Source: Escherichia phage K1ind1. From it: a stretch of DNA of 42,292 nt. This document shows, piece by piece, positions 1 to 42,292 of this stretch (positions are counted from its first letter, which is position 1; every line of letters starts with the position of its first letter). The translations under genes and the position numbers were made by a program. The notes under the pieces are model-generated. The model ran no database searches. It had not been told where the DNA came from and saw nothing but the letters and a program-made list of their open reading frames with translations. The stretch lies in the sequence record NC_041897.1, one strand, 5' to 3'.

Positions 1-1251
1 ATGAGTATTCAGCTATCCGCACCGCAGGCGCTGTTCCTGAATTGTGATAACAAATATAAGGCATATGTCGGCGGCTTCGGCAGCGGAAAGACATTTGTTG
101 GCTGCCTTGACCTGCTTACGTTTATGCTCAAGCATCCAGGTACGCGCCTGGGTTACTTCGGCCCGACATACCCGGCTATCCGTGACATCTTCTACCCGAC
201 ATTTGAGGAAGCCGCTAACCTGCTCGGCCTCGATGTGCTGGTTAAATCTGGCGACAAAGAAGTCGTGGTTACTTGCGGTAAGACGGTGCTCGGTACAGTT
301 ATCTGCCGTTCTATGGATAACCCAGGCTCGATAGTCGGCTTCAAAATCGCTGCTGCGGTCGTGGATGAGCTTGATGTATTGAGCCGTGAGAAAGCTGAGC
401 TGGCGTGGAACAAAATAGTCGCCCGTATGCGTCTGGTTATCCCCGGCGTAACTAACCACATCTCTGTCACCACGACACCGGAAGGGTTCAAGTTCGTCTA
501 CGCCAAGTTCAAAGAGAACCCGACGCCGAGTTACTCGATGGTGCAGGCTTCTACACACGAGAACGCGCGATTCCTGCCACCTGACTACATTAGTTCGCTG
601 ACCGAGACTTATCCGGCGCAGTTGATTAACGCGTATCTGAATGGTGAGTTCGTCAACCTTACCTCCGGCAGCGTGTATTACGCATATGACCGCCGTAAGC
701 ACCGCAGCAAAGAGGTAATTCAACCGGGCGACACGTTGTACATCGGGCAGGACTTCAACGTTACGAAGAACGCAAGCGCCGTGTATGTGCAACGTAAAGA
801 CGGCTGGCACGCGGTAGCAGAACTGAAAGGCCTGTTCGATACACCGGATACCGTGCGCGTAATTACTGAGAAGTGGAAGTCGCAAGGCCACCGCATCGTC
901 GTGTACCCGGACGCCAGCGGCAAGAACCGCAAGACCAACTCGGCGTCCATCTCTGACATCGCCCTACTCCAGCAGGCCGGTTTCGATGTACGGGCTAAAT
1001 CCGCCAACCCACCAGTTAAAGACCGTGTTTTAGCCGTGAATACCGCGCTGGAAAAAGGTAAGCTGTGGGTTAACGACCACTTATGCCCGGAGATAGCCAA
1101 GACGCTGGAGCAACAGGCGTACGACGACAACGGAGAGCCAGCTAAAGACGGCATCATTGACCATATGGCGGATGCGCTTGGCTATCCTGTAGTTTACGAG
1201 ATGCCGGTGGTTAAACCAGTAATCAACATCCCGGTGACTTTCGCACTTTAA
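1..1251 (+). CDS. terL: terminase large subunit
   Basis: 416 aa; N-terminal P-loop-like YVGGFGSGKT and Walker-B-like VVDELD; first gene of the morphogenesis block; ATG overlaps the inferred stop of the terS ORF across the window join. Confidence 0.8.
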   Translation: MSIQLSAPQALFLNCDNKYKAYVGGFGSGKTFVGCLDLLTFMLKHPGTRLGYFGPTYPAIRDIFYPTFEEAANLLGLDVLVKSGDKEVVVTCGKTVLGTVICRSMDNPGSIVGFKIAAAVVDELDVLSREKAELAWNKIVARMRLVIPGVTNHISVTTTPEGFKFVYAKFKENPTPSYSMVQASTHENARFLPPDYISSLTETYPAQLINAYLNGEFVNLTSGSVYYAYDRRKHRSKEVIQPGDTLYIGQDFNVTKNASAVYVQRKDGWHAVAELKGLFDTPDTVRVITEKWKSQGHRIVVYPDASGKNRKTNSASISDIALLQQAGFDVRAKSANPPVKDRVLAVNTALEKGKLWVNDHLCPEIAKTLEQQAYDDNGEPAKDGIIDHMADALGYPVVYEMPVVKPVINIPVTFAL

Positions 1252-1263
1252 GAGGATTATTCA

Positions 1264-2745
1264 ATGTTAACTATGAACGGTCAGAATCAGGGTGTTAAGA
1301 CAAAACACCGGGAATGGCTGCATCACTTCGATAAATGGCAGAAGGTGCGCCACGCACTGGAGGGTGACCTTATCCGCTATCTGCGAAACGTCGGGAAGAA
1401 CGAGCCGGACCCAACTTATGCAGCCCAGCGCCAGGAAGAATACGAGAACGGCGCTATCTGCTACAATTTCACCAAGCGTACCCTGTCGGGTATGGTTGGC
1501 TCGGTAATGCGAAAAGACCCGGAGCAGATTATTCCACGTGAACTGGAATACCTGTTACGCAATGCCGATGGCTCGGGTGTCGGCCTGTGGCAGCACGCGC
1601 AGGATACGCTGATGGAGATTGACTCGGTGGGTCGTGGCGGTTTACTGGTGGATGCGCCGGAGACAGCGGCAGCGACGGCAGCCGAACAGAACGCCGGATT
1701 ATTAAACCCGGTCATCGCATTCTATACCGCAGAGAACATCATCAACTGGCGACTCACTCGCGTAGGCTCTGTTAACCGCGTTACGATGGTAGTGCTGCGT
1801 GAGGTATGGGAATATTCAGAACCTGGAGCCGAGTTTGAAACCAAGTTTGGGGAACAATACCGCGTTCTCGACTTGATTGACGGGCGCTACCGTCAGCGCA
1901 TATACCGATTCGATGCGGAAGGCGGCGCGCAAGACGAAGTAATAGAAATCTTCCCGGAACTGGGCGAACAGTTGCGCGGTAAAATCCCGTTCACGTTCAT
2001 CGGGGCCAGCAACAACGACGCGACGGTTGATGACGCGCCTTTGCTGCCGTTAGCTGAGCTTAATATCGGGCATTTTCGCAACAGCGCAGACAATGAGGAA
2101 TCTAGCTTCGTTGTAGGCCAGCCCACTCTGTTCATCGCCCCCGGTGAGAACATGAGCATGGTGCAATGGAAAGAGGCCAACCCCCACGGCGTACGTATGG
2201 GTTCACGTTCGGGCCACAATATCGGCTACGGCGGCAACGCGTTTCTGGTCCAGGCGGGAGAGAATAACCTCGCCAAACAGAACATGTTGGATAAAGAGAA
2301 TCAGGCAATCCAGATTGGTGCACAGCTTATCACGCCTACGCAGCAAATCACCGCCGAATCCGCTCGCCTGCAACGTGCTGCCGATACGTCCGTAATGGCG
2401 ACCATTGCGCGTAACGTAAGCATGGCGTACACCGAAGCGTTGCGTTGGGTGGCTGCGATGCTGGGTCTACGCGAAGGAACGGAAATTGAGTTCAAGCTGA
2501 ATATGGAATTCTTCCTGCAACCAATGACCGCTCAGGACCGTGCGCAGTGGATGGCAGACATTAATGCCGGTTTACTACCGGCAACTGCTTACTACGCCGC
2601 GTTGCGTAAGGCTGGGGTAACTGACTGGACTGACGAGGAGATTACAACGGCTATTGAGGATGCACCTGTGCCGTTAGGCGCTGTTACTCAGGTAACTGGC
2701 GAGATTCCGCAGTCGGCGCAACAGCAGGATGCCACCCAGCAGTAA
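1264..2745 (+). CDS. portal protein
   Basis: 493 aa ORF immediately after terL; size, position and acidic C-terminus typical of portal proteins. Confidence 0.7.
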   Translation: MLTMNGQNQGVKTKHREWLHHFDKWQKVRHALEGDLIRYLRNVGKNEPDPTYAAQRQEEYENGAICYNFTKRTLSGMVGSVMRKDPEQIIPRELEYLLRNADGSGVGLWQHAQDTLMEIDSVGRGGLLVDAPETAAATAAEQNAGLLNPVIAFYTAENIINWRLTRVGSVNRVTMVVLREVWEYSEPGAEFETKFGEQYRVLDLIDGRYRQRIYRFDAEGGAQDEVIEIFPELGEQLRGKIPFTFIGASNNDATVDDAPLLPLAELNIGHFRNSADNEESSFVVGQPTLFIAPGENMSMVQWKEANPHGVRMGSRSGHNIGYGGNAFLVQAGENNLAKQNMLDKENQAIQIGAQLITPTQQITAESARLQRAADTSVMATIARNVSMAYTEALRWVAAMLGLREGTEIEFKLNMEFFLQPMTAQDRAQWMADINAGLLPATAYYAALRKAGVTDWTDEEITTAIEDAPVPLGAVTQVTGEIPQSAQQQDATQQ

Positions 2746-26843: not shown

Positions 26844-26873
26844 TTCTCAATTCCTTATATTGTTGGTGTATGA

Positions 26874-27307: not shown

Positions 27308-27389
27308 AACACGCACCCCTCCCGTTTTGTATGCTCAATACCGCAGCGCGGGCAGATTCGGCAGTCTTCTTCATAGAACCAGTAAATTT

Positions 27390-27521
27390 TCATTCCAGCA
27401 CCCACAGATAAATTGCAACTAACATACACAATACGGCGACCATCATGCCGTATTGCCCCTCATGACAGTAGACACCCGCGGCGAATCCCGCCAGTACCGC
27501 GATAATCAGTTTACTTAGCAT
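27390..27521 (-). CDS. small hydrophobic membrane peptide (43 aa, below ORF-track cutoff)
   Basis: ATG overlapping polymerase stop; hydrophobic throughout. Confidence 0.25.
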   Translation of the reverse strand: MLSKLIIAVLAGFAAGVYCHEGQYGMMVAVLCMLVAIYLWVLE

Positions 27522-29613: not shown

Positions 29614-30658
29614 CTTTCCACGCACGATTACCCGGGCGGCCTTCTACCAGTTTGTACCCTGGCACTTTCTTACCGGAATGCAATGCGGCGGACATCGCTT
29701 TCTCAACCTTGTCGATGTGCTGGCGCAACAGCGGCAACTTCTCATACTCAACTACGAGTTGCTCCGTCGTCAGTTCCAGCACAAAGTCGTCTTCAAGTTC
29801 TTCCGCCAGTACAGAATTAACCGTCTTTGTACGCGCGGCACACTGTTCAGAGAACCGGCACCACTGACAACCATCGACCGACGGCTTGAAGTCCGATGCT
29901 TTCAGGTTCTTCTTACCGCGGAAATACGCATCGAGCGCTAACAGTGCGCGTTTCTGCGCAAACTTAGCGAACAGTTCCAGGCCTTCAACAGAGATATCCC
30001 ACTCTGACGCACCGCCAGCATACGGCTGGAAGATGACCAGACGGACAACTGTGACGTTATAACGTCTCTTGAGTCGGCGATAAACACTGAGAGCGTAAAG
30101 CATAAGCTGCTTGTTTTCTTTCGCTTCGACACGGTGCCGTCCGGTTTTCAGGTCTCCGATAATGAGCATGTGCTCGTCTGTGTTCGCCAGTTCCTGAACG
30201 GCAACAAGGTCAGCAGTTCCGAATGTCTCAACGCCTTCGTAGCCTGGATGCAATACCTCAGTAAGATTTACCCGCATCTCCAGCTTTGCGTAAGTTGCAA
30301 CGTCGATAATCGCTTTGCAGTAGTCGGTGTACTTGCGCACCTGTTCAATCATGTCGGCGGTAATCAGTACCGAGCCTTTCATTGGGCTGATTAGCGCCTT
30401 AATCTGGCCTTTTCCTTCATCCAGTACATACGCGCCAACTTCACGCGCTAACGGCAGCGCGGTGCCTTTGATGTACTGGTTAAGGTGCATCTCAGCTATG
30501 GTGTGCATAGCTGTGCCTAATACCGCCGCTTTACCTGACGTGTTAGGAATATCTTTTTCACAGGCCAGTGATGCGGGGCAGGTTAACCACTTTTTAGCTC
30601 CAGACGGCGACAGTAAGGCGTGCACATCGTTATTGCCGCCGCGTTCTTTTAGAATCAT
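29573..30658 (-). CDS. Cas4/RecB-like PD-(D/E)xK exonuclease with Fe-S cysteine cluster
   Basis: 361 aa; N-terminal Cys (TCPASLAC), GDLKTG and QxxxY-like nuclease motifs, C-terminal CQWCRFSEQC. Confidence 0.65.
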   Translation of the reverse strand: MILKERGGNNDVHALLSPSGAKKWLTCPASLACEKDIPNTSGKAAVLGTAMHTIAEMHLNQYIKGTALPLAREVGAYVLDEGKGQIKALISPMKGSVLITADMIEQVRKYTDYCKAIIDVATYAKLEMRVNLTEVLHPGYEGVETFGTADLVAVQELANTDEHMLIIGDLKTGRHRVEAKENKQLMLYALSVYRRLKRRYNVTVVRLVIFQPYAGGASEWDISVEGLELFAKFAQKRALLALDAYFRGKKNLKASDFKPSVDGCQWCRFSEQCAARTKTVNSVLAEELEDDFVLELTTEQLVVEYEKLPLLRQHIDKVEKAMSAALHSGKKVPGYKLVEGRPGNRAWKDADAIEVSHGVCF

Positions 30659-31002
30659 CGTACCGCCTCCAAATACAAGTTTAATGCCTGTAACTGTCCT
30701 TCTGTGGGAATGAAAGAATCATCACGATGTAAGTCACTTAACTGTTGCAGCATCCCTGCGAACTTACGTCTTGCGTCAACTGACACCATGTGATGCTTTT
30801 CACTTTTGTATATTAATGTTTTTGGGTAATCCTCAAGCCTGCCGGACGATTTATTCACGCGGAGCGTCCGCTCTTCATGCGCAATGTGTATGTACTTTTT
30901 GCCATTTTGTAGCACAGTAGCTGCGCCACTGTTCTTTCTGCGGTCGCCGACGGTGTAAACCTTGTCACCGCTGCGCAAATTAAGCCACCATTTATCCGTC
31001 AT
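30655..31002 (-). CDS. hypothetical protein
   Basis: about 115 aa from ATG 31002 (ATGA overlap with upstream gene). Confidence 0.4.
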   Translation of the reverse strand: MTDKWWLNLRSGDKVYTVGDRRKNSGAATVLQNGKKYIHIAHEERTLRVNKSSGRLEDYPKTLIYKSEKHHMVSVDARRKFAGMLQQLSDLHRDDSFIPTEGQLQALNLYLEAVR

Positions 31003-31271
31003 ACCCTGTTCTCCCACTGGTCAATTAAATGTCGTGTCTTATGGTCGCAGTGCATAGCCCAGCCATACATCGACTCGAAGACGTAAAAGTCCGGTTTGGC
31101 GAAAGTCGTGCGCTTAATCTGCGACACGTGACGGCCTATGTCTTTAGGCCGTGGCACTTTGCCTAAGTACGCCATATCTTCCATCTGGTGTGCACCGGAC
31201 GGCGCACGCAATAACCATAGCGCCTCTGTGTTATCCCGCCGGTCAACGGCGCGGTATAGTTGGTAAATCAT
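30999..31271 (-). CDS. hypothetical protein
   Basis: 90 aa ORF in leftward operon. Confidence 0.4.
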   Translation of the reverse strand: MIYQLYRAVDRRDNTEALWLLRAPSGAHQMEDMAYLGKVPRPKDIGRHVSQIKRTTFAKPDFYVFESMYGWAMHCDHKTRHLIDQWENRV

Positions 31272-31314
31272 AATCCCGACCCTCAGTTAAAGCGGCCCGA
31301 AGGCCGCGGGATAA

Positions 31315-31833
31315 TTATTCTTCTTCGAAATACTTGTTCTTGATTGCCGTCAGGCGTTCCAGGTATTCGGCAAGGTCTTCGTCTTTAATCGCGGCAATCT
31401 TCATCTTCTTACCGGTGAACTCTTCCAGCAGTTCATCGGAATCATCGCACGCGGCGTCGCTCGGACCTTCGTTAATTGCATCGTCGATAGCCTGAATCTG
31501 GTCACGCAGAGACTGGTAATCTACTTCTTCCTTCTCTTCCGGTTCTGGCGTCGGTTCCTCTACTTTAGATTTACGCGGCTTGCGTTTCGGCTTCTCTTCT
31601 TCTGCTGGTTTAGTGTCGACGATGTCTTCACCTTCAACCGGGATTTCTTTCGCCTTCTCGACTTCTTCAAGTGCTTTAGCCAGTTCTTTTTTAACTGTCT
31701 CTACCCCAGTTACCGCGACGTCAACAGTCAATTCACCTACAGATTTGCTAGTCGGTTGTTTCACACTGTTTGCAGCAATCAGTTCGTGGGCGACTACGAA
31801 ACGTTCCAGTAATACCAAGAATTTCTCTAACAT
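31315..31833 (-). CDS. hypothetical acidic protein
   Basis: 172 aa; E/K/P-rich central linker, acidic C-terminus; first gene downstream of leftward promoter. Confidence 0.45.
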   Translation of the reverse strand: MLEKFLVLLERFVVAHELIAANSVKQPTSKSVGELTVDVAVTGVETVKKELAKALEEVEKAKEIPVEGEDIVDTKPAEEEKPKRKPRKSKVEEPTPEPEEKEEVDYQSLRDQIQAIDDAINEGPSDAACDDSDELLEEFTGKKMKIAAIKDEDLAEYLERLTAIKNKYFEEE

Positions 31834-31865
31834 TTGTTTCTCTCCTCTCGTTTGGTATGTGTTAA

Positions 31866-31894
31866 ATATAATAGCGAACTATTCACGTTGTCAA
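31866..31894 (-). promoter_or_regulatory. sigma70-like promoter TTGACA-17-TTATAT with AATAG-N4-CTATT palindrome in spacer (31870-31883)
   Basis: consensus -35 on minus strand (plus 31889-31894), -10 at plus 31866-31871; upstream of 31833 gene. Confidence 0.5.
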
Positions 31895-31914
31895 TGGGCT
31901 TTTCTAAAATAATT

Positions 31915-31928
31915 AATATGGTACTATT
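31915..31928 (+). promoter_or_regulatory. imperfect copy of the palindrome (AATAT-GGTA-CTATT) upstream of Cro-like gene
   Basis: 45 bp from the perfect copy at 31870; followed by AAGGAG RBS and ATG 31959. Confidence 0.4.
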
Positions 31929-31958
31929 CACATATCAACTGACTAAGGAGTAATTGAC

Positions 31959-32174
31959 ATGCAACCATCTGAACTAGGCATCCGTGTAGAACAGCGCCGT
32001 AAAGAACTCGGCATTTCCCAACGCCGTCTGGCTGTCCTGGCCGGTGTTTCCCAGGGCGCGATTAACCAGCTGGCACTCGGTGTAACTAAGGACGTCCGCC
32101 CAGCGACGCTGTTTAAACTGGCGGAAGTGCTGCAAGTAGATGCCAAGTGGCTGGCGTTCGGTGAAGGGGCTTAA
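31959..32174 (+). CDS. HTH XRE-family (Cro/CI-like) transcriptional regulator
   Basis: 71 aa; RRKELGISQRRLAVLAGVSQGAINQL helix-turn-helix; AAGGAG RBS; followed by terminator. Confidence 0.7.
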   Translation: MQPSELGIRVEQRRKELGISQRRLAVLAGVSQGAINQLALGVTKDVRPATLFKLAEVLQVDAKWLAFGEGA

Positions 32175-32190
32175 CGCCCCTTTCTTTTTG
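32164..32190 (+). terminator. rho-independent terminator
   Basis: GGGGC-TTAAC-GCCCC hairpin followed by TTTCTTTTT. Confidence 0.55.
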
Positions 32191-32191
32191 C

Positions 32192-34450
32192 CTATTCTAA
32201 ATCCTCCTCTGTCACTGTTAACAGTTCATTCGGTTCGTATATCGTCTTCGGTCTTAATCTGTCCCCCATCTTTTCAGGTATCCGGTATGTGCCTGGTATA
32301 ACTTCACCGTTAACATCGCACCCGAGCATCAACTCACCGTCTTTCAGCATCTTCTCAAGATGGTGGTTGGTGATGGCGTGGTCCCCCGAGTTCGCCACTA
32401 TCTGCCGTTGGGTAAAACCTCGTCCGGTGTCGTCGGACTGTTGCAGGTCTTCCAGCGCGGCGAGTATTGATTCCTTACGCCCTTCATCCTTCCCGCGTTT
32501 TACAGCATTCTTTACGTTTTCTTTACCTTCTTTAGTTAACCCTTCTTCCCGCTCCTTCTCCTCGTCAGTTTTGAACGGCTCGAAGCCCCACGGCATCAGC
32601 ACAAGCGCCTTGTGCGGCTCAGGCAGATCGAGGTTTACGATTGTGCCGTATTCCTCTGTGCTACCGAGGAACTCAACCGCACGGTATTCTTTCGGAGGCG
32701 GGGCTTCACGGAACTGTACCGACTCCAGAACCATGCCAACCGTTTTCTGTTGAGGCCCATGCTTAAATTTCGAGTGGTATACGTTTATCTGGCGGTCGGT
32801 AGCGCGCTCAATTGTCAGCTCCACATCAACACCTGCATACAGCGCCCCGCTACCACGGGCTTTCTTTCCACCCTTAGGCGTATGGTGGACGACACCCACA
32901 GCGGCTTTAGTCGCATCACGTACTTCTTTCAGGATGGCGATAACTTTACCCATACCGATTGCCGTTGATGAGCTGTTCTCGTCGAACTTATCAATCGTCA
33001 GGGCCAGCGTCTGGTTGAGGGTATCGAACGCGACCATACCAATAGGCTCGTCCCCTGCAGCTTCACGCATCCTGCGGATTAGCGCGGGGATTTTTTTATC
33101 ACCATGCGCGGCGAGCACCTCACCCATATCAATGACATGTACGTAATCTTTACCTTCCTCGCCGTATTTAGCCGCGAGCGCGTCAATACGTGTGCGTGTA
33201 GCTGCGCCTCCCTCACCGTCGATATAGAAATGGTGGCAACGCTGGGTATCCGCCCCGGCAAACCGGTATCCGGCGGCGCTCAGGTACATCATCCCCAGCG
33301 TATAGAACGATTTGTACGTACCAGATTCCCCGACAATATCCCAGATGCAATCAGACGGCATGTACCCTTCAACGACGAAATCGGCCTTTACCGGTTCTGG
33401 TAACTCGTCCTCCTCTGAGTCCTCGTCGTCTTCCAGGTCATCCAGGCTGCATGAGACAGATTCACGCGCGCCCCAGCCGATAGCCTCGGCCACTTCACTG
33501 AACGGCAGTCCGGTCGCATCACACGCGTATTTCCACACTTCTTTCGGGGGCATTCCTTCGGTCGCGGCAATGTCGGTGTCGTGAATCATGGTTACGTTCG
33601 GCGCTTCGTATCCCTCGCGCGGGAAACATAACAGGAAGTCGTCCGGGCGTGGTGTCGGGTCGCTGTAGTTTTCTGCGTGTTCTGGCGTAGCTGGCATCTT
33701 AAGGCCACGCGGCGTCATGATGCCGCCGTACTCGAATGCCAGTGCTTCAAACGCATCTGTAAACGCGGTGCGCAGTTCTTCCGGTATCTGGTAATCAGAT
33801 GCGCTGCTGATGTCAACGGCTGGGACGCCTTCCAGTAACTCATCAGGGTCAATCAGGTCGTTGCGGCGCGACCAGATAACGGTAGCGCCGACAGGAGGCA
33901 AGTACATCGGCTGCGAAAGAGTGAACCCGCTGCGGTCGGCGCCCATGCCTTTGAAGAAGTGCTCCAGCAATCCATGACGAACACGAATGATGTCACCGCC
34001 CTCAACCGTTCGGGCCAGCGGCATGACGACGCGAAAGCGCGGGGCTTCGTCTGTGTGTGATGCCGTGGTATAGAGGCACATCGCCCGCCGGCTGCGCTTA
34101 ACCAGGCGCACAGCTTCCTGATACTCTTCCAGGGTTGCACTGTCAAAGTCCAGGTACGCCAGCGACGATTTGCTTACAGACGCGTCGCAGCGATAGAAAA
34201 AGCCTTTACGCGCTTGCTTAAAGTCACCTGTTTCCGGGTCTTTTACGGTGCTGTGCGTAGAGTCGCACGCAGCGGTGATGTAACCAGGCGCGGTCTTCGG
34301 GTTAATTCCGTCACGGACAGCATCAAGCGGCTGGATTAAATCTTTCAGGTCGTCCAGCGTTGCCGTGTGTGTGGTTCTGACGTTTATATCCTTTTTCTCG
34401 GCCCGCGCGTTGCGACGAGACCACGAGTAGGATAAAATTACATCGGACAT
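32192..34450 (-). CDS. DNA primase / replicative helicase-like protein (primase N-terminal region plus RecA-like ATPase)
   Basis: 752 aa; central Walker A GESGTYKS with downstream Walker B-like hydrophobic-DE; largest replication protein. Confidence 0.6.
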   Translation of the reverse strand: MSDVILSYSWSRRNARAEKKDINVRTTHTATLDDLKDLIQPLDAVRDGINPKTAPGYITAACDSTHSTVKDPETGDFKQARKGFFYRCDASVSKSSLAYLDFDSATLEEYQEAVRLVKRSRRAMCLYTTASHTDEAPRFRVVMPLARTVEGGDIIRVRHGLLEHFFKGMGADRSGFTLSQPMYLPPVGATVIWSRRNDLIDPDELLEGVPAVDISSASDYQIPEELRTAFTDAFEALAFEYGGIMTPRGLKMPATPEHAENYSDPTPRPDDFLLCFPREGYEAPNVTMIHDTDIAATEGMPPKEVWKYACDATGLPFSEVAEAIGWGARESVSCSLDDLEDDEDSEEDELPEPVKADFVVEGYMPSDCIWDIVGESGTYKSFYTLGMMYLSAAGYRFAGADTQRCHHFYIDGEGGAATRTRIDALAAKYGEEGKDYVHVIDMGEVLAAHGDKKIPALIRRMREAAGDEPIGMVAFDTLNQTLALTIDKFDENSSSTAIGMGKVIAILKEVRDATKAAVGVVHHTPKGGKKARGSGALYAGVDVELTIERATDRQINVYHSKFKHGPQQKTVGMVLESVQFREAPPPKEYRAVEFLGSTEEYGTIVNLDLPEPHKALVLMPWGFEPFKTDEEKEREEGLTKEGKENVKNAVKRGKDEGRKESILAALEDLQQSDDTGRGFTQRQIVANSGDHAITNHHLEKMLKDGELMLGCDVNGEVIPGTYRIPEKMGDRLRPKTIYEPNELLTVTEEDLE

Positions 34451-34508
34451 GTTATATTTCCTTCAGCAAGTAATTTAGCCTCGGCGTTCACCGCGTCGGG
34501 GCTTTCTT

Positions 34509-34742
34509 TTATTCCAGGTCTTCTAAAGTAGCGGTCATTCCGCGAACTTCGGCAACAGCACTATATTTCCCGCCAACATTTTTCACGACACCAGATTTAA
34601 CCAGTACCTTCAACGACCCTTCAATAATGGCGGAACTATAGTACCTAAAATAACTACGGCGCAAGTCCATAACGCTGCACGACCCTTTTTTACGGGTTAA
34701 TGAAACGACTGCCGTAAATACGCGGGACTGGAACTCGGTCAT
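34509..34742 (-). CDS. hypothetical protein
   Basis: 77 aa; coupled downstream of AlpA-like gene. Confidence 0.35.
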   Translation of the reverse strand: MTEFQSRVFTAVVSLTRKKGSCSVMDLRRSYFRYYSSAIIEGSLKVLVKSGVVKNVGGKYSAVAEVRGMTATLEDLE

Positions 34743-34909
34743 TTTACATTCTCCTTAATCCACGCTTCCACTTTCTCCGGGTCGAAAGTACCCGGCTGCC
34801 GGCGGCCCATAATACGGATACAACAATCCGGGAACTTCCCACTCTTTAACCAGTTATTCAGCGTGCGACGGGTAACCCCAATACGCTCGGCTACTTCATT
34901 CTGTGTCAT
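34739..34909 (-). CDS. AlpA/excisionase-family HTH DNA-binding protein
   Basis: about 56 aa from ATG 34909; MTQNEVAERIGVTRRTLNNWLKSGKFP ... EKVEAWI pattern typical of AlpA-like regulators. Confidence 0.5.
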   Translation of the reverse strand: MTQNEVAERIGVTRRTLNNWLKSGKFPDCCIRIMGRRQPGTFDPEKVEAWIKENVK

Positions 34910-34941
34910 TCTCAAACCCCCATTATCAGTTAACGAAACCA

Positions 34942-34970
34942 AGTATACATTGCGAATAATGGGAAATCAA
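34942..34970 (-). promoter_or_regulatory. sigma70-like promoter TTGATT-17-TATACT
   Basis: read on minus strand about 30 nt upstream of AlpA-like ATG. Confidence 0.4.
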
Positions 34971-35343
34971 ACATAATCGCACCTATTGACATTATGGAAA
35001 TCTTCGTTTAAGGTGCTTCTGTATCTTAGTTACTTTGATTCTTGTTCACCTTGTAAAACCCGCCGAAAACGAGCGCCCAACGCGAAGTGTTAGGCGGCAG
35101 TTTACTGAACATTCGAATTATCGTAACTTTCCTTCCTAAGTATCTCCGGTTGCCATGGGCAAGCTCTATTCCCATCGGCGGAATATATCTTAAGTATCTG
35201 ATTTTCTTAAAGTGCCGTAGATTCGCAACCGTAAAAATGTAACGATTATTGGGCAGGCTTAGGGCCTGCCCTTTAGTTACCAAGTAATAAGAATAAAGGC
35301 ACAACCCTACCTGAAGAATCACAACGGCAACGTAACTAATCTC

Positions 35344-35372
35344 TTGCACACCCCAACATAATAGGATACTAT
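35344..35372 (+). promoter_or_regulatory. sigma70-like promoter TTGCAC-17-TACTAT with AATAG-N4-CTATT palindrome (35360-35373)
   Basis: conserved cassette CTTGCACACCCCAACATAATAGGATACTATTCAC; GAGGAG RBS and ATG 35407 downstream. Confidence 0.5.
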
Positions 35373-35406
35373 TCACTTATCGAAACGAGACAGAGGAGTG
35401 AGGGTT

Positions 35407-35589
35407 ATGTTTAAGAATGGTCAGTTGGTGAAAACAAAGCGCAGCCGGCAACACGTAATAGTTACCAAAGACGAGGATGAATATGGTGTTGTCGCCGTAT
35501 TTAGCCTTATACGGAGGAAACATGGTTATGTTCGTCACGATAATTTAGAACTCATCGGCAACAATTTTAAATTCAAAGGGGCGAAGTGA
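35407..35589 (+). CDS. hypothetical early protein
   Basis: 60 aa from ATG 35407; first gene after promoter. Confidence 0.4.
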   Translation: MFKNGQLVKTKRSRQHVIVTKDEDEYGVVAVFSLIRRKHGYVRHDNLELIGNNFKFKGAK

Positions 35590-35777
35590 TGGGAGAATTA
35601 ATTTACGACGTATACGTCGACGGGGTCATAACAGAGACAACAAGTAATAAAGATTACGCAATAAAGCGGTATGTGTATTATGCCGCAGTGGTAGGAAGGA
35701 TGGTAGAAGTGCGGGAGCAAACGGCATCGAATCATGATGCTTGTGCCGACGACTCTGAGGGAGGTCGCCGTGAATAA
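35589..35777 (+). CDS. hypothetical early protein
   Basis: 62 aa; ATG overlaps upstream stop (GTGATG). Confidence 0.35.
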   Translation: MGELIYDVYVDGVITETTSNKDYAIKRYVYYAAVVGRMVEVREQTASNHDACADDSEGGRRE

Positions 35778-35812
35778 GTTTATTTTATCGCCGCTTATGT
35801 GGAGCACGAGTT

Positions 35813-36007
35813 ATGGGGGTTGATATGAGCCCGTATAACGAATTCCGCTTACGCCGTCTGGTTGGGGGTATGCGCGCCGCCGAGTTCGGTGTTGAATGCC
35901 GGGAAAAGGAGGAATACACCCCCTGGAAGTCGTGGCATTTGGCTCATGCCAAGTATTGTGAGTACAAGTTAAACAGTTTCCTTAAGCACCACGGAGTTGA
36001 GTTATGA
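35813..36007 (+). CDS. hypothetical early protein
   Basis: 64 aa ORF. Confidence 0.35.
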   Translation: MGVDMSPYNEFRLRRLVGGMRAAEFGVECREKEEYTPWKSWHLAHAKYCEYKLNSFLKHHGVEL

Positions 36008-36192
36008 GTAATTACGATGCTACTAAATTCGACCATGCGTTTTTGATTAACAAGTTCTATGAGCGTTATCCGCTATCCGAGTTTAAAACAGATTCTGAAC
36101 GCGCCGATGCTCTGGGCTATTTTATGGCGGGTGCCGAGTTGCAGCGACTGGGCGCGTTCATCGAGTACTGGGAAGAAGACGAGGAGTATTGA
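36004..36192 (+). CDS. hypothetical early protein
   Basis: 62 aa; ATGA overlap. Confidence 0.4.
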   Translation: MSNYDATKFDHAFLINKFYERYPLSEFKTDSERADALGYFMAGAELQRLGAFIEYWEEDEEY

Positions 36193-36195
36193 GTT

Positions 36196-36339
36196 ATGAG
36201 AGAAGCATTCGAACGGTGGGCCGTCGTCGAGGGCCTGCCGGTTAACAAGGGTTCAAAGAAAGAGTACCTGAACGTTAAGACCCGTCTTGCGTGGCGGGCG
36301 TGGAAAGCTGGCGTGCAATCTGTGATGAATAAGGGGTGA
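36196..36339 (+). CDS. small hypothetical protein (47 aa, below ORF-track cutoff)
   Basis: ATG with GAGGAG RBS; fills gap between flanking ORFs. Confidence 0.35.
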   Translation: MREAFERWAVVEGLPVNKGSKKEYLNVKTRLAWRAWKAGVQSVMNKG

Positions 36340-36342
36340 TTT

Positions 36343-36537
36343 ATGGGTGAGTGGATTAAGTGTAGTGAGCGGATGCCGAACGAAGAAGATGTTTTGGTTT
36401 ATTGTTCAGATACAAAAGAGCAGATGGTGGGGTTTCACAAAGGTAAAGGGCTATTTCAATTCTTTTACATGAATGGTGTTGAGGGGGTATGTGAACCAAC
36501 ACACTGGATGCCGTTACCCGAGCCGCCAGAAGTGTGA
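36343..36537 (+). CDS. DUF551-like protein
   Basis: 64 aa; WIKCSERMP ... WMPLPEPP pattern characteristic of the phage-associated DUF551 family. Confidence 0.5.
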   Translation: MGEWIKCSERMPNEEDVLVYCSDTKEQMVGFHKGKGLFQFFYMNGVEGVCEPTHWMPLPEPPEV

Positions 36538-36671
36538 TGTTCAATAGTTTGGGATTTTATTGAGTGACTTACGCTGCTACACAGCAGCGTACAACTTTAA
36601 CTTAGTGTCGTCAAAAGGCGACACTTTCATCAAACGCAACAATCGAAGCGACTATTGCAGGAGATGCAACA

Positions 36672-36845
36672 ATGATTACTAAAGAACAGGCTGAACGACT
36701 AATAACGTTAATCGACACGATGATTGACGTAAAAACCGATTTAGCAACGGCAACAGAGGAATCCGCTACCTGGTCGCTTGAAGAAAGAGAAGCAGAAGCG
36801 GAAAGGGAGTTACTTGCGTTCATCGACTCTATAACACACCAATAA
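36672..36845 (+). CDS. small hypothetical protein (57 aa, below ORF-track cutoff)
   Basis: ATG with AGGAG RBS; competes with a low-complexity antisense ORF. Confidence 0.3.
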   Translation: MITKEQAERLITLIDTMIDVKTDLATATEESATWSLEEREAEAERELLAFIDSITHQ

Positions 36846-36852
36846 AATTTAC

Positions 36853-36881
36853 TTGCACACTAAGATAGAATAGGCTACTAT
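36853..36881 (+). promoter_or_regulatory. sigma70-like promoter TTGCAC-17-TACTAT with AATAG-N4-CTATT palindrome (36869-36882)
   Basis: second plus-strand copy of conserved cassette; GAGGAGAG RBS and ATG 36913 downstream. Confidence 0.5.
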
Positions 36882-36912
36882 TCATTTACACAAACGAGAG
36901 GAGAGACGGAAG

Positions 36913-37128
36913 ATGTTTAATGCAGTGGCGAGATGTTTTCACGCAATTTTCGGTGCTCCGCAAGAAGTATGCACCAAGCATAAATTTGTACTGTCTTGCG
37001 TGGTAGGGGATGAGTTTGATGGGTTCGATAAACTGTTGGTTTGCGACCATTGTGGGCAAGAAGCCATTAAGCACGCAAACGGTAAATTCGAACTAATTAG
37101 CGAGGAAGGGGACGGTGATGGTGAGTAA
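36913..37128 (+). CDS. small Cys-containing protein, zinc-ribbon-like
   Basis: 71 aa; C-x-x-C-like pair CDHCG plus upstream Cys; acidic tail. Confidence 0.4.
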   Translation: MFNAVARCFHAIFGAPQEVCTKHKFVLSCVVGDEFDGFDKLLVCDHCGQEAIKHANGKFELISEEGDGDGE

Positions 37129-37630
37129 CAAAAACGAAGTATTCGAGCACCTGATTGACCAGCTACGGCATCAGGTAAATAACAACCGGTGCGAAGACCT
37201 GGCGCATGAGGTGCAGATTAAGGAGTTGCGGGAAGACAACATTAAGAAATCTGAGCACATATCGCACCTGACCGGGCAAGTTAAGGAGTTGCGTCTGGCA
37301 TTGGCCGAGGCTACTGGTGACGTGGAGGCATACAAACTTATCCGCAAAGGTGCGTACGGTTCGGAGCAATCTGGTTGCCGAAAAGAAGATACGCAGGAAT
37401 GTGACCACAATTGGATTATCGCTCCAGGATTGTTTATTGCCGAAGGCCACAAGGACAACGTGCCCGGTAGCCTGTTTTGCTGCGAATGCGGCAAGCGTGA
37501 GTGGGACGGACTTGAGTATGGGGCAACAGCCTGTACACAGGAGTGCAAACACAGTTTCTATTATGTAATAACAGATGGCTCCGCGCCGTTCGGTACGAAA
37601 GTATGTAAAACGTGTGGGGAATACTTCTGA
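37115..37630 (+). CDS. hypothetical protein with coiled-coil N-terminus and Cys-rich C-terminus
   Basis: 171 aa; CCECG and CKTCG pairs. Confidence 0.45.
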   Translation: MMVSNKNEVFEHLIDQLRHQVNNNRCEDLAHEVQIKELREDNIKKSEHISHLTGQVKELRLALAEATGDVEAYKLIRKGAYGSEQSGCRKEDTQECDHNWIIAPGLFIAEGHKDNVPGSLFCCECGKREWDGLEYGATACTQECKHSFYYVITDGSAPFGTKVCKTCGEYF

Positions 37631-37833
37631 TGACCAGCATCTTATTTATCTGGGTACTGTCGGCGGGCCAGATGCAACTAGCGGCATCGGAAACGTTTTA
37701 TTCGATGGAGGCGTGCCAGTCAGCGGCACGCGCCGCAGAGAACGCGCACTTTCTGTTTCAGGGTGACAAGCCCAACGATTCAGAGGTACGCGCTATCTGC
37801 TCACCTAAGCGACTTGGTAAACAGGAGAAATAA
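37630..37833 (+). CDS. small protein with N-terminal signal/TM segment
   Basis: 67 aa from ATG 37630 (ATGA overlap); MTSILFIWVLSAG hydrophobic N-terminus. Confidence 0.4.
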   Translation: MTSILFIWVLSAGQMQLAASETFYSMEACQSAARAAENAHFLFQGDKPNDSEVRAICSPKRLGKQEK

Positions 37834-38126
37834 TGTCGTTAGCAACTGACATCCTGAAACGAAGCGGCCTTGCGCCGCTGTCGCCGAGAGCGAATACGCG
37901 TATACACAAGCGCCGCCGTAATGCACTGTACCCCGAGATTCAGGCCAGACGCAAAGCGGTACGCGCCTGCGGATTCCAGAACGGGAAGGCTGTGAATCTC
38001 GGTGAGTTTAAAACACAGGAACGCGCAGCAATCGCTAATCGGCTATTTAATTACTGGAAATCGCTTGGATACGATGATATTCCGACGAAACCACAGAGAC
38101 GACAATACATCTGGCGCCATAAATAA
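37833..38126 (+). CDS. hypothetical basic protein
   Basis: 97 aa; R/K-rich. Confidence 0.4.
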   Translation: MSLATDILKRSGLAPLSPRANTRIHKRRRNALYPEIQARRKAVRACGFQNGKAVNLGEFKTQERAAIANRLFNYWKSLGYDDIPTKPQRRQYIWRHK

Positions 38127-38156
38127 ACCGTTATTAAGATAATTCCTAACCGTGCT

Positions 38157-38196
38157 ATCCTCCAGTTACTGCATACTTAATACGCACCTGGAGGAT
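38157..38196 (+). promoter_or_regulatory. hairpin sequestering the holin Shine-Dalgarno
   Basis: 9-bp stem ATCCTCCAG / CTGGAGGAT with 22-nt loop; 3' arm contains GGAGGA RBS located 6 nt before TTG start at 38202. Confidence 0.4.
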
Positions 38197-38201
38197 TCAT
38201 C

Positions 38202-38510
38202 TTGGATAAATTTACTGAAACAGTGACGGGGTGGCTTCTCGCCGCCGCACTGGTCGGTGGATTGGTCGGGCTAAGACAACATAAAAAGTCTATATCCGGG
38301 CCGATTGACGGACTGGTATTTCTTCTCACCGGCTTCGCGTGTGCTATTTTCGGTGCACCTCTTGCCGCTCAATGGTTCGGTATTACCGGTGAGCGTGAGA
38401 TAGCTGGCCTCGGATTCATCATTGCCATTCTCTGGATGCCTATCTATTCCCGCCTTTCTGGCATCGTATCGGGTGGCGATATTGCCCGCCCAGGAGGACC
38501 GCATGACTGA
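38202..38510 (+). CDS. holin-like membrane protein
   Basis: 102 aa; TTG start; three predicted TM segments; immediately upstream of endolysin. Confidence 0.5.
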   Translation: MDKFTETVTGWLLAAALVGGLVGLRQHKKSISGPIDGLVFLLTGFACAIFGAPLAAQWFGITGEREIAGLGFIIAILWMPIYSRLSGIVSGGDIARPGGPHD

Positions 38511-38775
38511 GCTATTCTGGTTTGTCACAATGCTTTCAATGGGCGCTTCGTCCCTGTTCAACGTGTATAATGAACGCGTGGACGACGGGCTGTTCGGGCG
38601 TGTTCTCTATATCCTGACTGCTATCGTCTGTGCCGCCGGATGTATTCACCTGTTACAGGGCAGCATGTCGCCTACGCTGCCTGAGACATTAATCACATTA
38701 GTCGCGCTGCGCCAGATTCGCCAGGCGTGGCTGTCATACGGAGGACATAAGCGTGTCTCGAAATATTTCAGATAA
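38503..38775 (+). CDS. second holin/antiholin-like membrane protein
   Basis: 90 aa from ATG 38503 (GGAGGA RBS); two to three hydrophobic helices; overlaps endolysin start. Confidence 0.4.
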   Translation: MTELFWFVTMLSMGASSLFNVYNERVDDGLFGRVLYILTAIVCAAGCIHLLQGSMSPTLPETLITLVALRQIRQAWLSYGGHKRVSKYFR

Positions 38776-39238
38776 TGGATTGCATTTCTGTGCCGCGTTC
38801 GAGGGATTCCGCGGAACTGCGTATCGCGCTACGCCGAACGAGAAGTACCTGACTATTGGTTATGGTCACTACGGGCCAGACGTAACACCAGGTAAGACCA
38901 TCACACCAGGACAGGGCTTGCTGTTACTGAATCGCGATATGGCTAAGGCTGTAGCTGCTGTTGACGCAGCAGCACACCATTCGCTTACACAGGCACAGTT
39001 CGATGCGGTGTGTGACCTGGTCTATAACGTGGGGGCTGGCGTGATTTCGGCTACTACCGGTACAGGTAAGGCACTGCGCTCCGGTGATATCGCGACGTTA
39101 CGGGCTAAGCTGGCGCTGTTCATCAACCAGAACGGCAAACCACTACTTGGCCTGCGTCGCCGTACAGCCGGGCGTCTGGCGCTGTTCGACGGTAAACCGT
39201 GGCAAGAGGCTGAGGCTATCGGTAGGGCGGTTAAATGA
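38753..39238 (+). CDS. endolysin, GH24 lysozyme (T4/lambda R-like)
   Basis: 161 aa; catalytic-region pattern HFCAAFEGFRGTAYRA ... IGYGHY typical of phage lysozymes. Confidence 0.75.
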   Translation: MSRNISDNGLHFCAAFEGFRGTAYRATPNEKYLTIGYGHYGPDVTPGKTITPGQGLLLLNRDMAKAVAAVDAAAHHSLTQAQFDAVCDLVYNVGAGVISATTGTGKALRSGDIATLRAKLALFINQNGKPLLGLRRRTAGRLALFDGKPWQEAEAIGRAVK

Positions 39239-39367
39239 TGGACGAATACGAAGGCGTTTAGTAAACTTACATCCACGCTGTTTGTGCCTGCATACTAAGC
39301 CCCGGTAAACCCGAAGCAGCAGCCCAAGCGGTGGAGACTGCGTAGGGTTCAGGGGCTTATGCCCGAA

Positions 39368-39396
39368 ACCCGGACCGCGAATCCGGGTTTTATTTT
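39368..39396 (+). terminator. rho-independent terminator
   Basis: ACCCGGA-CCGCGAA-TCCGGGT hairpin followed by TTTTATTTT. Confidence 0.6.
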
Positions 39397-39402
39397 ACCA
39401 AT

Positions 39403-39430
39403 TGACACCTGAGACTAATCCGACGATACT
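39403..39430 (+). promoter_or_regulatory. sigma70-like promoter TTGACA-16-GATACT
   Basis: consensus -35 hexamer read directly; followed 40 nt later by strong terminator. Confidence 0.45.
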
Positions 39431-39469
39431 TAAATCACCTCCTGTTCCATCCCTCTGCTCTCCAGTTTT

Positions 39470-39503
39470 ATCCCGGCCCTTACCCAGCCGGGATTTTTTT
39501 TAT
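39470..39503 (+). terminator. strong rho-independent terminator
   Basis: ATCCCGGC-loop-GCCGGGAT hairpin followed by T8. Confidence 0.65.
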
Positions 39504-39523
39504 CTGTTTTCTGTAATGACTAG

Positions 39524-39552
39524 TTGACTATTACCTTAGACCCTATTATATT
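39524..39552 (+). promoter_or_regulatory. sigma70-like promoter TTGACT-17-TATATT
   Basis: near-consensus hexamers; about 30 nt upstream of ATG 39586. Confidence 0.5.
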
Positions 39553-39585
39553 TACTCCATCGACAACGAGAACGGAGTAGAGAAA

Positions 39586-39735
39586 ATGAAAATCACAGAC
39601 ATCGAAGCATTCAAAGACGCACAACTGATGGCACGCATCGCCGTTAGTAACCTGAGCAACAGCATTCCAGCGGACGCGTTCTGGTTCGCTGCGATGCAGA
39701 CACTTAAAGCAGCTTATGCAGGAGAGAAGAAATGA
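39586..39735 (+). CDS. small hypothetical protein (49 aa)
   Basis: ATG with GGAGTAGAG RBS; below ORF-track cutoff. Confidence 0.3.
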   Translation: MKITDIEAFKDAQLMARIAVSNLSNSIPADAFWFAAMQTLKAAYAGEKK

Positions 39736-39893
39736 GCGAACAAGGCCCAGTAAGCCAGCCGTTACGAGTAGGCCGTAAAGTCAGTCACACCCCGTTCCCG
39801 ACACGCGAGGAACTGATGAAACGTAACAGTTTCCCCGGCCCGGACAAGAACAAGTATCTCAATCGCATGTGGGGAGAGTGTAAAAATGACTGA
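39732..39893 (+). CDS. small hypothetical protein (53 aa)
   Basis: ATGA-coupled to flanking ORFs. Confidence 0.3.
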   Translation: MSEQGPVSQPLRVGRKVSHTPFPTREELMKRNSFPGPDKNKYLNRMWGECKND

Positions 39894-40131
39894 CCGTGAA
39901 TACGAAAAGATGATGGTTGAGGCCGTTAACGGCGGCGCAGACATTAGCCATGTGATGTACGTCCTGAATACTAAAATCGCTGTAGCTGAGCAAATGGTTG
40001 AGTCGCTTTATGAGACGCGCCGTGAACTGATTAACCGCTTCAACCTGAACAAGTGCGAACATGAGTTCGACTACAATCCGAAGGATATGTGCGGGCAGTG
40101 TATTAAATGCGGGGTACAGCGTCATGCCTAA
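39886..40131 (+). CDS. small zinc-ribbon-like protein
   Basis: 81 aa; C-terminal CEHEFDY ... CGQCIKCG. Confidence 0.4.
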   Translation: MTDREYEKMMVEAVNGGADISHVMYVLNTKIAVAEQMVESLYETRRELINRFNLNKCEHEFDYNPKDMCGQCIKCGVQRHA

Positions 40132-40372
40132 AATCACAATCGCATCGCTCGAGCGCCGTATTCTGGTGCTTGAGTCGGAGAAACAGACGCTAGGCGGGCA
40201 ACTGTCGATTAACGGTGAGTACCAGTTAGCCGCATTTAAGGTTCTTCTCATGTTGTTGAGAGGAGAAGAGGAAAAGATGAACGCCTGCGAGCATGATTAC
40301 CGCCTGCATTTAGTTGATGGGGTGCATCGAGCCACGTGCATTAAATGTGGTAAAGCGTATGGAGTCGCCTAA
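40124..40372 (+). CDS. small zinc-ribbon-like protein (paralog of previous)
   Basis: about 82 aa from ATG 40124; C-terminal CEHDYRL ... CIKCG mirrors the preceding gene. Confidence 0.4.
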   Translation: MPKITIASLERRILVLESEKQTLGGQLSINGEYQLAAFKVLLMLLRGEEEKMNACEHDYRLHLVDGVHRATCIKCGKAYGVA

Positions 40373-40541
40373 ACCAGTAGTCATTGACGGCGTCCTGTGG
40401 AAACCTTACTCGGTTAACCACATCGACGCCGACGGGAAGAAGTTCAGCTTCTACATTTTTGCAATTAGCCGGGAACACGCCGCTTGTGTGGTCGACGACA
40501 TACGAGAAACGGCGTGGCTCGGTGATGAGATAGTGGGGTGA
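40359..40541 (+). CDS. hypothetical protein
   Basis: about 60 aa from ATG 40359. Confidence 0.35.
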   Translation: MESPKPVVIDGVLWKPYSVNHIDADGKKFSFYIFAISREHAACVVDDIRETAWLGDEIVG

Positions 40542-40545
40542 GAGT

Positions 40546-40776
40546 ATGTTTCATGAATTAAAGATATTACCTGAGCATTTTGAGCCTGTTTTAGCAGGCG
40601 TTAAGTTGGCGGAACTTCGATTAAACGACCGTAACTTTAAAGTGGACGATACTTTGTGTCTGAGAGAATACGAAAACGGTGGGTACACAGGCCGTATCGT
40701 TTACCGCCGCGTTATTCATGTTGCGGACGTAGGGGCTTACCTACCAGGGTATGTACTATTAAGTATGGAGGATTGA
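40546..40776 (+). CDS. DUF3850 / ASCH (PUA-like) domain protein
   Basis: 76 aa; ELKILPEHFEPVLAGVK..ELRLNDRNFKVDDTLCLRE pattern typical of this phage-associated family. Confidence 0.45.
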   Translation: MFHELKILPEHFEPVLAGVKLAELRLNDRNFKVDDTLCLREYENGGYTGRIVYRRVIHVADVGAYLPGYVLLSMED

Positions 40777-40778
40777 TT

Positions 40779-40862
40779 ATGAGTCTCGAGGTTGTTATCG
40801 GTCTTGTAGCGGCAAGCTATTTTATCGGCGTATTGATTGGGTTTATGTGGGGCCGTAAATAA
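40779..40862 (+). CDS. very small hydrophobic peptide (27 aa), tentative
   Basis: ATG with GGAGGA RBS; single hydrophobic helix; the longer ORF-track version starts inside the upstream gene. Confidence 0.25.
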   Translation: MSLEVVIGLVAASYFIGVLIGFMWGRK

Positions 40863-41143
40863 TGGCACGTACTGTCGCCGCGAGATTCACAGACATTGAA
40901 TCCGCTATTGAAGAAGCCGTTTACAGTAAGTTCTGCAACCCTTCTGCGGTTCATAACTACGGTATTATCATGCGGTACGGTAAGTTTGAAATTCGCAGGG
41001 TGCGCAGCAGTCGCCCGCAAGAGTTTTTATGGACCACAGAAAGCCTTGTCCCTAGATGCCACATCTACACAAGCGGTGCTCATACAGTTTTCGTAGACCT
41101 GGACAAGAAAGATATTACAGTTACTAAGGGAGAGATTAATTGA
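40862..41143 (+). CDS. hypothetical protein
   Basis: 93 aa ORF. Confidence 0.4.
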   Translation: MARTVAARFTDIESAIEEAVYSKFCNPSAVHNYGIIMRYGKFEIRRVRSSRPQEFLWTTESLVPRCHIYTSGAHTVFVDLDKKDITVTKGEIN

Positions 41144-41376
41144 TTACCAGCATTCCGAACCTGATTAAAGAATTTGGCACGATGGCGGAGACATGCCGAC
41201 AAACCGGCATCAACGAAATGACGATTGCGAAGTACAGCAAAGACGTAGATTGTGAACGCCATGTAATTTATAACAATCGTCTGATGACGCACGTTAAGAC
41301 AAGCCCGGTGTTATTCACGCGCCGGGGTATTACTAAAACAGAGCAACGTATTGCTAAAGAGGATAGTGGGGAATGA
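41140..41376 (+). CDS. hypothetical protein, possible HTH
   Basis: 78 aa from TTG (GGGAGAG RBS) or 64 aa from ATG 41182; ETCRQTGINEMTIAKY segment is HTH-like. Confidence 0.35.
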   Translation: MITSIPNLIKEFGTMAETCRQTGINEMTIAKYSKDVDCERHVIYNNRLMTHVKTSPVLFTRRGITKTEQRIAKEDSGE

Positions 41377-41531
41377 TTAGTATTCTGGAGTTCATCGACA
41401 ACCAAGTTTGGTACGAGCCAGAGTTAAATAAGTATTCAGTTAATGGGAAAATATTTCGGCGCAAAGGCCAGGCAGAGCGTTACGCAGCTAAACTATACCG
41501 TCAGCTTGTCAAGGATGGTTTCTTCAAATGA
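41373..41531 (+). CDS. small hypothetical protein (52 aa)
   Basis: ATGA-coupled; below ORF-track cutoff. Confidence 0.3.
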   Translation: MISILEFIDNQVWYEPELNKYSVNGKIFRRKGQAERYAAKLYRQLVKDGFFK

Positions 41532-41632
41532 GACTACTAATCATCCCTAACGCCTGGGCCATTCCCGTAGCTAACGACCATTACGGCGGCGACGGTAAAA
41601 GAGCACCACGCCACGGCCTATACAACTGATAC

Positions 41633-41656
41633 AAGCCCTCTACCGAGGGCTTTTCT
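41633..41656 (+). terminator. rho-independent terminator
   Basis: AGCCCTC-TACC-GAGGGCT hairpin followed by TTTT. Confidence 0.55.
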
Positions 41657-41750
41657 GTACATCCTGCCCAATCACCTTATATAATCCATTTAGACGCGTA
41701 GGGCGCGTCTGGTGCGCTCTGATGGTCAGACGCATATGCAAGGGGATTAT

Positions 41751-42292
41751 ATGAAGCTGAAACTCAAGCAGCCATCGCCAGAGGTGGTGCAAGCTGCACA
41801 TGAAGAAGCTGTTAGCGCAAACCGCCGACGTAAACGACCGCGCGGTAAACAGAGCCTTTATCAATCGTCCCGTAATTCCGCAGCGTTGTGGGACCCGGAC
41901 TATTGCGACGCGTTAATCGAGTTCTTCGACCGCACGTCATGGGAACTGGTGCCTACATCTAAGGGTGACGAACGCCCACTGATTCAGGATAAACCGCCGT
42001 CACTGGCCCGCTTTGCCTTACACATCGGCGTCACTATCCCTATTATTAAGCTATGGCTGCGTGAGATTCCAGCATTCGCAGAAGCCTGGGAGACCGCACA
42101 GGCACTGGAAGAGGCATACTTCACTGAGACCGGGGCCGCGGGCATCTCGGCTACATTTGCTGCCGCTAAGCTGAGCCTCGGCAAAGAGAAACCAGTTGAA
42201 TCCACCGAAGAAACGGTACCGACCGAGATTATTTTTAGTGTTGCAGAGCCTGTAGGTAAAATTGTAACAACGAATATGGGTGAGGTAGAGGA
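41751..42292 (+). CDS. terS: terminase small subunit (3' end runs off the window; closes onto position 1-4 if the molecule is circular)
   Basis: ORF open to the window edge with AAGGGGA RBS; position directly upstream of terL; at least 180 codons; the ORF was absent from the track because no stop lies inside the window. Confidence 0.55.
   Translation, partial: MKLKLKQPSPEVVQAAHEEAVSANRRRKRPRGKQSLYQSSRNSAALWDPDYCDALIEFFDRTSWELVPTSKGDERPLIQDKPPSLARFALHIGVTIPIIKLWLREIPAFAEAWETAQALEEAYFTETGAAGISATFAAAKLSLGKEKPVESTEETVPTEIIFSVAEPVGKIVTTNMGEVE

Follow-up and report, generated by a model that had tools for sequence, protein, structure and literature searches.

The 42,292-nt record NC_041897.1 of Escherichia phage K1ind1, which was analyzed over its whole length and is referred to here as the window, ends within an open reading frame. 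From the ATG at 41751 the frame is open on the plus strand through the last base, 42292, and contains 180 complete codons followed by the bases GA. Is this gene truncated because sequence is missing, or is it an intact gene that was cut when a circular map was opened? An earlier note had opted for the latter: the frame was considered to be terS, its stop codon to be formed by joining GA to the ATGA at positions 1-4 (GAA TGA), overlapping the ATG of terL, and the window to be a whole, circularly permuted genome opened at terL. The reading of the frame is exact, both on translation and on in silico joining of 42292 to 1, which yields ...GGT GAG GTA GAG GAA TGA. In the joined gene, codon 181 is GAA, the product comprises 181 aa, and the stop codon TGA at bases 2-4 overlaps the terL start codon ATG at 1-3. 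The region around the join has the following features.

41751..42292, plus strand, ending at bases 1-4: terS (small terminase), codons 1-180 and two bases of codon 181, assigned by translation, PHROG 3064 and the annotated 546-nt genes of relatives.
1..4, plus strand: ATGA overlap, in which A1 finishes codon 181 of terS, terS stops with TGA (2-4) and terL starts with ATG (1-3); seen on joining and conserved in relatives.
1..1251, plus strand: terL (large terminase, 416 aa), with an ATPase N-domain and an RNaseH-like nuclease C-domain, assigned by Pfam, PHROG 2 and others.
1264-2745: portal gene, the next gene after terL, assigned by PHROG 145 (2.2e-148).

At an arbitrary join, an in-frame stop codon falls on an ATGA with a chance of about 1 in 12, and to that extent the closure could be a coincidence, with further sequence lying between 42292 and 1. 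The ATGA pattern by itself is weak evidence, and the comparison with relatives is decisive for the closure. With a 1400-nt query composed of the last 700 and the first 700 bases, the join was covered by a single ungapped alignment in each of 41 phage records from GenBank (86-99% identity). Escherichia phages G AB-2017 and ULINTec2 (L001 and L002) agree with the window at 60 of the 60 positions surrounding the join, and Ro145clw and Salmonella phage L223 do so nearly throughout; in all four phages a 546-nt terS CDS (181 aa) is annotated that overlaps a 1251-nt terL by 4 nt. The 4-nt overlap is thus conserved in L001-L004, and it is conserved in phage Shashou as well. Furthermore, six metagenomic contigs from IMG/VR, 24-45 kb long, contain a 32-nt string spanning the junction as an exact and internal match, and all relatives of the window's own terminase type (type A, see below) that were compared have a TerS of 181 aa with the constant end ...NMGEVEE. 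Sequence inserted between 42292 and 1, which was named in the earlier note, together with fixed ends elsewhere, as what would speak against its reading, is present in none of the 41 ungapped alignments, and a direct repeat of 8-399 nt is absent from the ends of the window. An incomplete genome that closes on ATGA by coincidence is refuted by these comparisons, and its probability is practically zero. Judged from the alignments, the window is a complete genome with a circular map, and nothing is missing between 42292 and 1. This part of the earlier claim, a whole genome opened at terL, was borne out by the contiguous junction in the 41 records and the six contigs.

The cut through terS is an ordinary consequence of opening a circular phage assembly at the next gene, terL. 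It matters for annotation, because a linear view would call terS truncated or miss it, whereas the circular map contains the whole gene. In replicating or concatemeric DNA, the 181-aa terS would run straight into terL.

The closest relatives explain where the record was opened. In positions 1-25000, 100% of which align, the window is 97.0% identical to Escherichia phage K1ind2, and in positions 24000-42292, with 84% aligned, the identity is 94.8%; by this similarity the window is a complete genome of a Kagunavirus (an E. coli siphovirus of the Guernseyvirinae, K1ind/K1G group). The records of K1G, K1H, K1ind2, K1ind3 and fTaEco/fKuEco have the same final base as the window, and K1ind2, K1ind3, K1G and K1H (Kagunavirus, GenBank GU196277-GU196281) share with it the gene order and the origin at the terL ATG. 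The opening at this ATG is a shared convention of the depositors, not biology. Nor is the splitting of terS over the origin new, as it is already annotated in the record of the sister phage K1ind2, which is declared circular and in which the terS CDS (42185..42765 joined to 1..4) ends at base 4, as in the window. The product of this CDS is named "hypothetical protein" in GenBank and "terminase" in RefSeq. K1ind2 differs from the window in a 194-aa terS that begins at an upstream in-frame GTG, and in small indels elsewhere in the genome. In four further E. coli 4s Kagunavirus-like phages, Shashou, Sciku, Schulenberg and Snoke, the terS-terL junction has 87% DNA identity to the window; Shashou has the same ATGA overlap and a TerL that is 97.8% identical to that of the window. 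Unlike the window, these four records were opened just upstream of terS, so that the gene is unsplit.

The two proteins encoded on either side of the join were characterized by profile, sequence and structure comparisons. TerL matched the Pfam families Terminase_6N (PF03237; 3.7e-21, 76.2 bits versus a cut-off of 22) and Terminase_6C (PF17289; 6.5e-11, 42.9 bits versus a cut-off of 22.6), and a Walker A motif, G24GFGSGKT31, was read in the translation. The same pair of domains is found in gp2 of P22, and a secondary match to Terminase_3 occurs as in SPP1 and Sf6. Neither of the families that are both matched by HK97 gp2, TerL_ATPase (PF03354) and TerL_nuclease (PF20441), was detected in TerL at E<=0.01, and the GpA families, which are matched by lambda gpA, gave no match. 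BLASTP and phmmer comparisons of TerL with the TerLs of HK97, lambda, P22, Sf6 and SPP1 revealed nothing significant, and a direct sequence search against PDB chains yielded nothing. As no reference TerL was similar in pairwise comparison, the classification is based on Pfam profiles only. By these profiles, TerL is a motor-nuclease of the Terminase_6 (T4/P22) type, a membership that also occurs outside headful phages.

TerS matched PHROG 3064, "terminase" (head and packaging), with 7e-72. It had no Pfam match at E<=0.01, and neither direct sequence searches nor profile searches against PDB chains retrieved anything. The family is narrow, with 25 clusters in 5.8 billion proteins, essentially all of them from this phage group, and therefore an AF2 model built from 21 sequences reached a pLDDT of only 60.7, with residues 143-180 (pLDDT 30-44) predicted to be disordered. 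When this low-confidence model was compared by Foldseek with 350,542 PDB chains, the top five were all P22 gp3 (3P9A), with a probability of 0.89-0.97, E values of 0.02-0.07, about 120 aligned columns and 21% identity, but a TM score of only 0.31-0.39. In hhalign, the TerS alignment was collinear with the single P22 gp3 sequence over 106 columns at a non-significant E value of 0.33, the profile being shallow (Neff 1.7), while the single Sf6 gp1 sequence gave a marginal and likewise non-significant E value of 0.024 over 47 columns. The Shashou record itself notes an HHpred probability of 99% to P22 gp3 for its TerS. The model thus suggests that TerS is a P22-gp3-like small terminase, the best fold match being weak but specific. 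The assignment of the frame as terS in the earlier note agrees with the PHROG match, with the position directly upstream of, and overlapping with, a Terminase_6N/6C TerL, and with the weak fold match.

P22 is the closest well-known counterpart of this arrangement. Its terS-terL pair (gene 3/gene 2) heads the late operon, as proposed below for the window, and P22 packages by the headful pac mode; gp2 has the same Terminase_6N and 6C architecture as the TerL of the window, and gp3 is the best fold match of the TerS. In addition, terS also spans the record origin in the P22 reference record. There are also differences: pairwise sequence identity between P22 and the window is undetectable, genes 3 and 2 of P22 share 23 nt instead of an ATGA, the pac site of P22 has been mapped inside gene 3, and P22 is a temperate podovirus whereas the phage studied here is a virulent siphovirus. 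The headful phage Sf6 has the same annotated 4-nt overlap between genes 1 and 2 (1..423, 420..1832) as the window. However, the TerL of Sf6 belongs mainly to Terminase_3, unlike that of the window, and Sf6 gp1 has only marginal profile similarity to the TerS of the window.

Upstream of terS, a 219-nt non-coding stretch contains several candidate signals.

41633..41656, plus strand: putative terminator-like hairpin AAGCCCTC-TACC-GAGGGCTT with a T-rich run behind it, which would close the preceding gene block; based on folding and compensatory changes.
41656..41685, plus strand: putative sigma-70-like promoter TGTACA-18-TATAAT upstream of terS, matching the consensus at 10/12 positions.
41740..41746, plus strand: AAGGGGA, a Shine-Dalgarno-like motif separated by 4 nt from the terS ATG at 41751, proposed from the sequence.

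The stem of the hairpin is preserved in L223 via compensatory changes (GCCCGC...GCGGGC); a scan for terminator patterns near terS flagged no site, so that the hairpin is proposed from folding and these changes only. The promoter-like site is largely conserved across the relatives and is the probable start of a late or structural transcription unit. Because this putative terminator-promoter pair precedes it, terS is apparently the first gene of a late operon, which would be headed by terS, terL and the portal gene. Two conserved hairpins, GACGCGTAGGGCGCGTC and GCGCTCTGATGGTCAGACGC, lie in the predicted 5' UTR of terS, and the leader from 41633 to 41750 has a fold z-score of -2.9. These leader hairpins may serve regulation or, possibly, be part of pac.

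The start codon of terS has been called in two ways. An in-frame GTG at 41712 (and also an ATG at 41736) upstream of the ATG at 41751 permits a 194-aa TerS, which is used for K1ind2, for Shashou and in many metagenome gene calls. The 13-codon extension (41712-41750 of the window) is far more variable than the coding N-terminus, overlaps the leader hairpins and lacks a Shine-Dalgarno motif. Because such a motif precedes 41751 and the extension varies much more, the ATG at 41751, giving 181 aa, appears to be the likelier start of terS than the GTG at 41712.

A further Shine-Dalgarno-like motif is located within the 3' end of terS.

42282..42286, plus strand: GAGGT, a Shine-Dalgarno-like motif of terL that lies 7 nt ahead of its start codon at 1 and still within terS; proposed from the sequence.

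In the Shashou record, a ribosome-binding site is annotated at the equivalent position. An ATGA overlap together with a ribosome-binding site embedded in the upstream gene is the classical arrangement for translational coupling. Ribosomes that finish terS would thus be able to restart on terL via the ATGA overlap and the GAGG site. Overlaps of this kind occur elsewhere in the window: 4-nt ATGA/GTGA start-stop overlaps chain the genes 8964-9377/9374-9769/9766-10182/10179-11351, and others were found at 18395-18910/18907-19272 and 41140-41376/41373-41531, as well as at several sites on the minus strand. In a genome as compact as this one, with its many 4-nt overlaps, the terS/terL overlap is typical rather than special.

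How the DNA is packaged, and hence whether the virion DNA has fixed ends, is a separate question, because a cos genome or a genome with direct terminal repeats (DTR) that has been re-opened at terL would look identical to the window. The earlier claim that the genome is circularly permuted is accordingly not a valid deduction from the closure; it gains its support from end data on relatives. PhageTerm assigned Shashou, Sciku, Schulenberg and Snoke to headful/pac packaging (PMC6776780, PMC6753286, PMC6763661, PMC6776784), redundant, random and permuted ends were reported for the Jerseyvirus SeF1 (PMC9409062), and the termini of the Kagunavirus fBC-Eco01 were not found (PMC9825357). Among the papers searched for experimentally mapped ends in Jersey-like or K1G-like phages, none with restriction or Bal31 data was found. 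By analogy with the relatives, and with further indirect support from the P22 gp2 domain pair of TerL and the weak P22 gp3 fold match of TerS, headful packaging from a pac site, with terminally redundant and circularly permuted virion DNA, is most likely for K1ind1. Circle-closing assemblies opened at arbitrary points, as they occur in this group, would follow from such DNA. A pac site was sought via suppressed synonymous variation in terS of 16 sequences; only a mild trough was present at codons 13-28 (41787-41834; diversity of 0.43 versus about 0.7 elsewhere), which is not statistically established, and no site could be named. As the place of an embedded cis element, for instance pac, these codons are a weak candidate.

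Virion DNA with fixed cohesive ends elsewhere on a complete circular map, that is, non-permuted DNA as generated by an HK97-like 3' cos mechanism, has been suggested indirectly by a neighbour-joining tree in the description of phage JSSK01, in which the TerLs of all 'K1glikevirus' members cluster with the 3' cos terminases of HK97 (PMC11641727), and the closure of an assembly cannot by itself separate cos from pac. However, the TerL of the window lacks PF03354 and PF20441, has instead the domain pair of P22 gp2, and retrieved nothing with HK97 gp2 in BLASTP and phmmer; moreover, headful packaging or random ends were reported for five relatives and no termini for a sixth, and TerS resembles P22 gp3, albeit in a weak fold match. 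We therefore regard fixed cohesive ends as improbable. An HK97-like 3' cos class for K1G-like TerLs (PMC11641727) is supported neither by the Pfam content nor by the PhageTerm results for the relatives. This is a small conflict in the literature, in which the terminase of the group looks P22/T4-type, in line with the headful calls of PhageTerm, and not HK97-type cos. Similarly, exact direct terminal repeats in the style of T7 or T5 could have been collapsed by the assembler, with the true ends elsewhere; collapsed repeats also yield circular-looking assemblies, and the window has no terminal repeat, as would be expected after a collapse. Yet PhageTerm detects such repeats as coverage steps, and headful/pac packaging or permuted ends were called in the relatives; moreover, a terS/terL pair in which TerS is P22-gp3-like is typical of pac phages. 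We regard collapsed repeats, too, as improbable. Taken together, the results make it very probable that the window is a complete Kagunavirus genome opened at terL, with terS and terL joined by an ATGA overlap at the head of a late operon, a P22-gp3-like TerS, and headful packaging. Within this combined explanation, the frame, the closure, the conserved overlap and the family assignments are shown by the present comparisons, whereas we infer the translational coupling, the function of the promoter and the terminator, and the packaging mode, the last from the relatives.

The comparison of relatives also revealed that the origin of the record falls into a mosaic part of the packaging module. Across the relatives compared, each 20-residue block of the TerS core, residues 1-143 (ending in ...FAAAKLGL), shows 85-100% identity; the core is presumably responsible for DNA/pac recognition and oligomerization. 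In contrast to this core, the last residues, about 38 in number, are present in at least three unrelated forms, each of which was found only with its own type of TerL, and these types cross genus borders.

42179..42292, plus strand: variable C-terminal tail of TerS, residues ~144-181, predicted to be disordered and co-inherited with the TerL type; based on the comparison of relatives and pLDDT.
Type A: tail ...EIIFSVAEPVGKIVTTNMGEVEE, TerL of 416 aa, 4-nt ATGA overlap; the window, G AB-2017, ULINTec2, Ro145clw, L223 and Shashou.
Type B: tail ...RDEPISEVTIKVVSGER, TerL of 423 aa (~54% identical), GTG start and 11-nt overlap; SETP3, demigod and phiWAO78-1.
Type C: tail ...SEPIEIRFVKAVKPGGE, TerL of 411 aa (39% identical), TAATG; Kagunavirus BCH953P1.

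Types A and B differ most in the TerS tail (0-25% identity) and in TerL residues 1-120 (23-47%), whereas most of the C-terminal half of TerL is 63-80% identical. In several relatives, the DNA similarity to the window ends at ~42173-42178 and resumes at ~619-720. Because similarity breaks at about 42178 and resumes only at ~619-720, the record origin lies inside a mosaic cassette that consists of the TerS tail and the N-domain of TerL. This agrees with the accepted view, drawn from P22, lambda and T4, that small terminases dock with their C-terminal tails on the large subunit. On balance, we lean towards the view that the tail and the TerL N-domain form an exchangeable or co-evolving docking cassette, in which a Guernseyvirinae core has been fused to at least three tails, each specific for a TerL type. 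If so, the tail would serve as a docking peptide, co-evolving or co-transferred with the motor, and the Guernseyvirinae would be a natural swap experiment in which the TerS-TerL interface could be mapped. The swapping of the tail and TerL as a unit offers a modest lead on how small terminases recruit their motor.

A different alteration of the packaging module was observed in the Salmonella phage demigod (Jerseyvirus; L014:2079-2863). Directly after terL, on the opposite strand, a 'Hef-like homing endonuclease' is annotated that occupies the place of the portal gene of the window, and it looks like the insertion of a mobile endonuclease into the packaging module.
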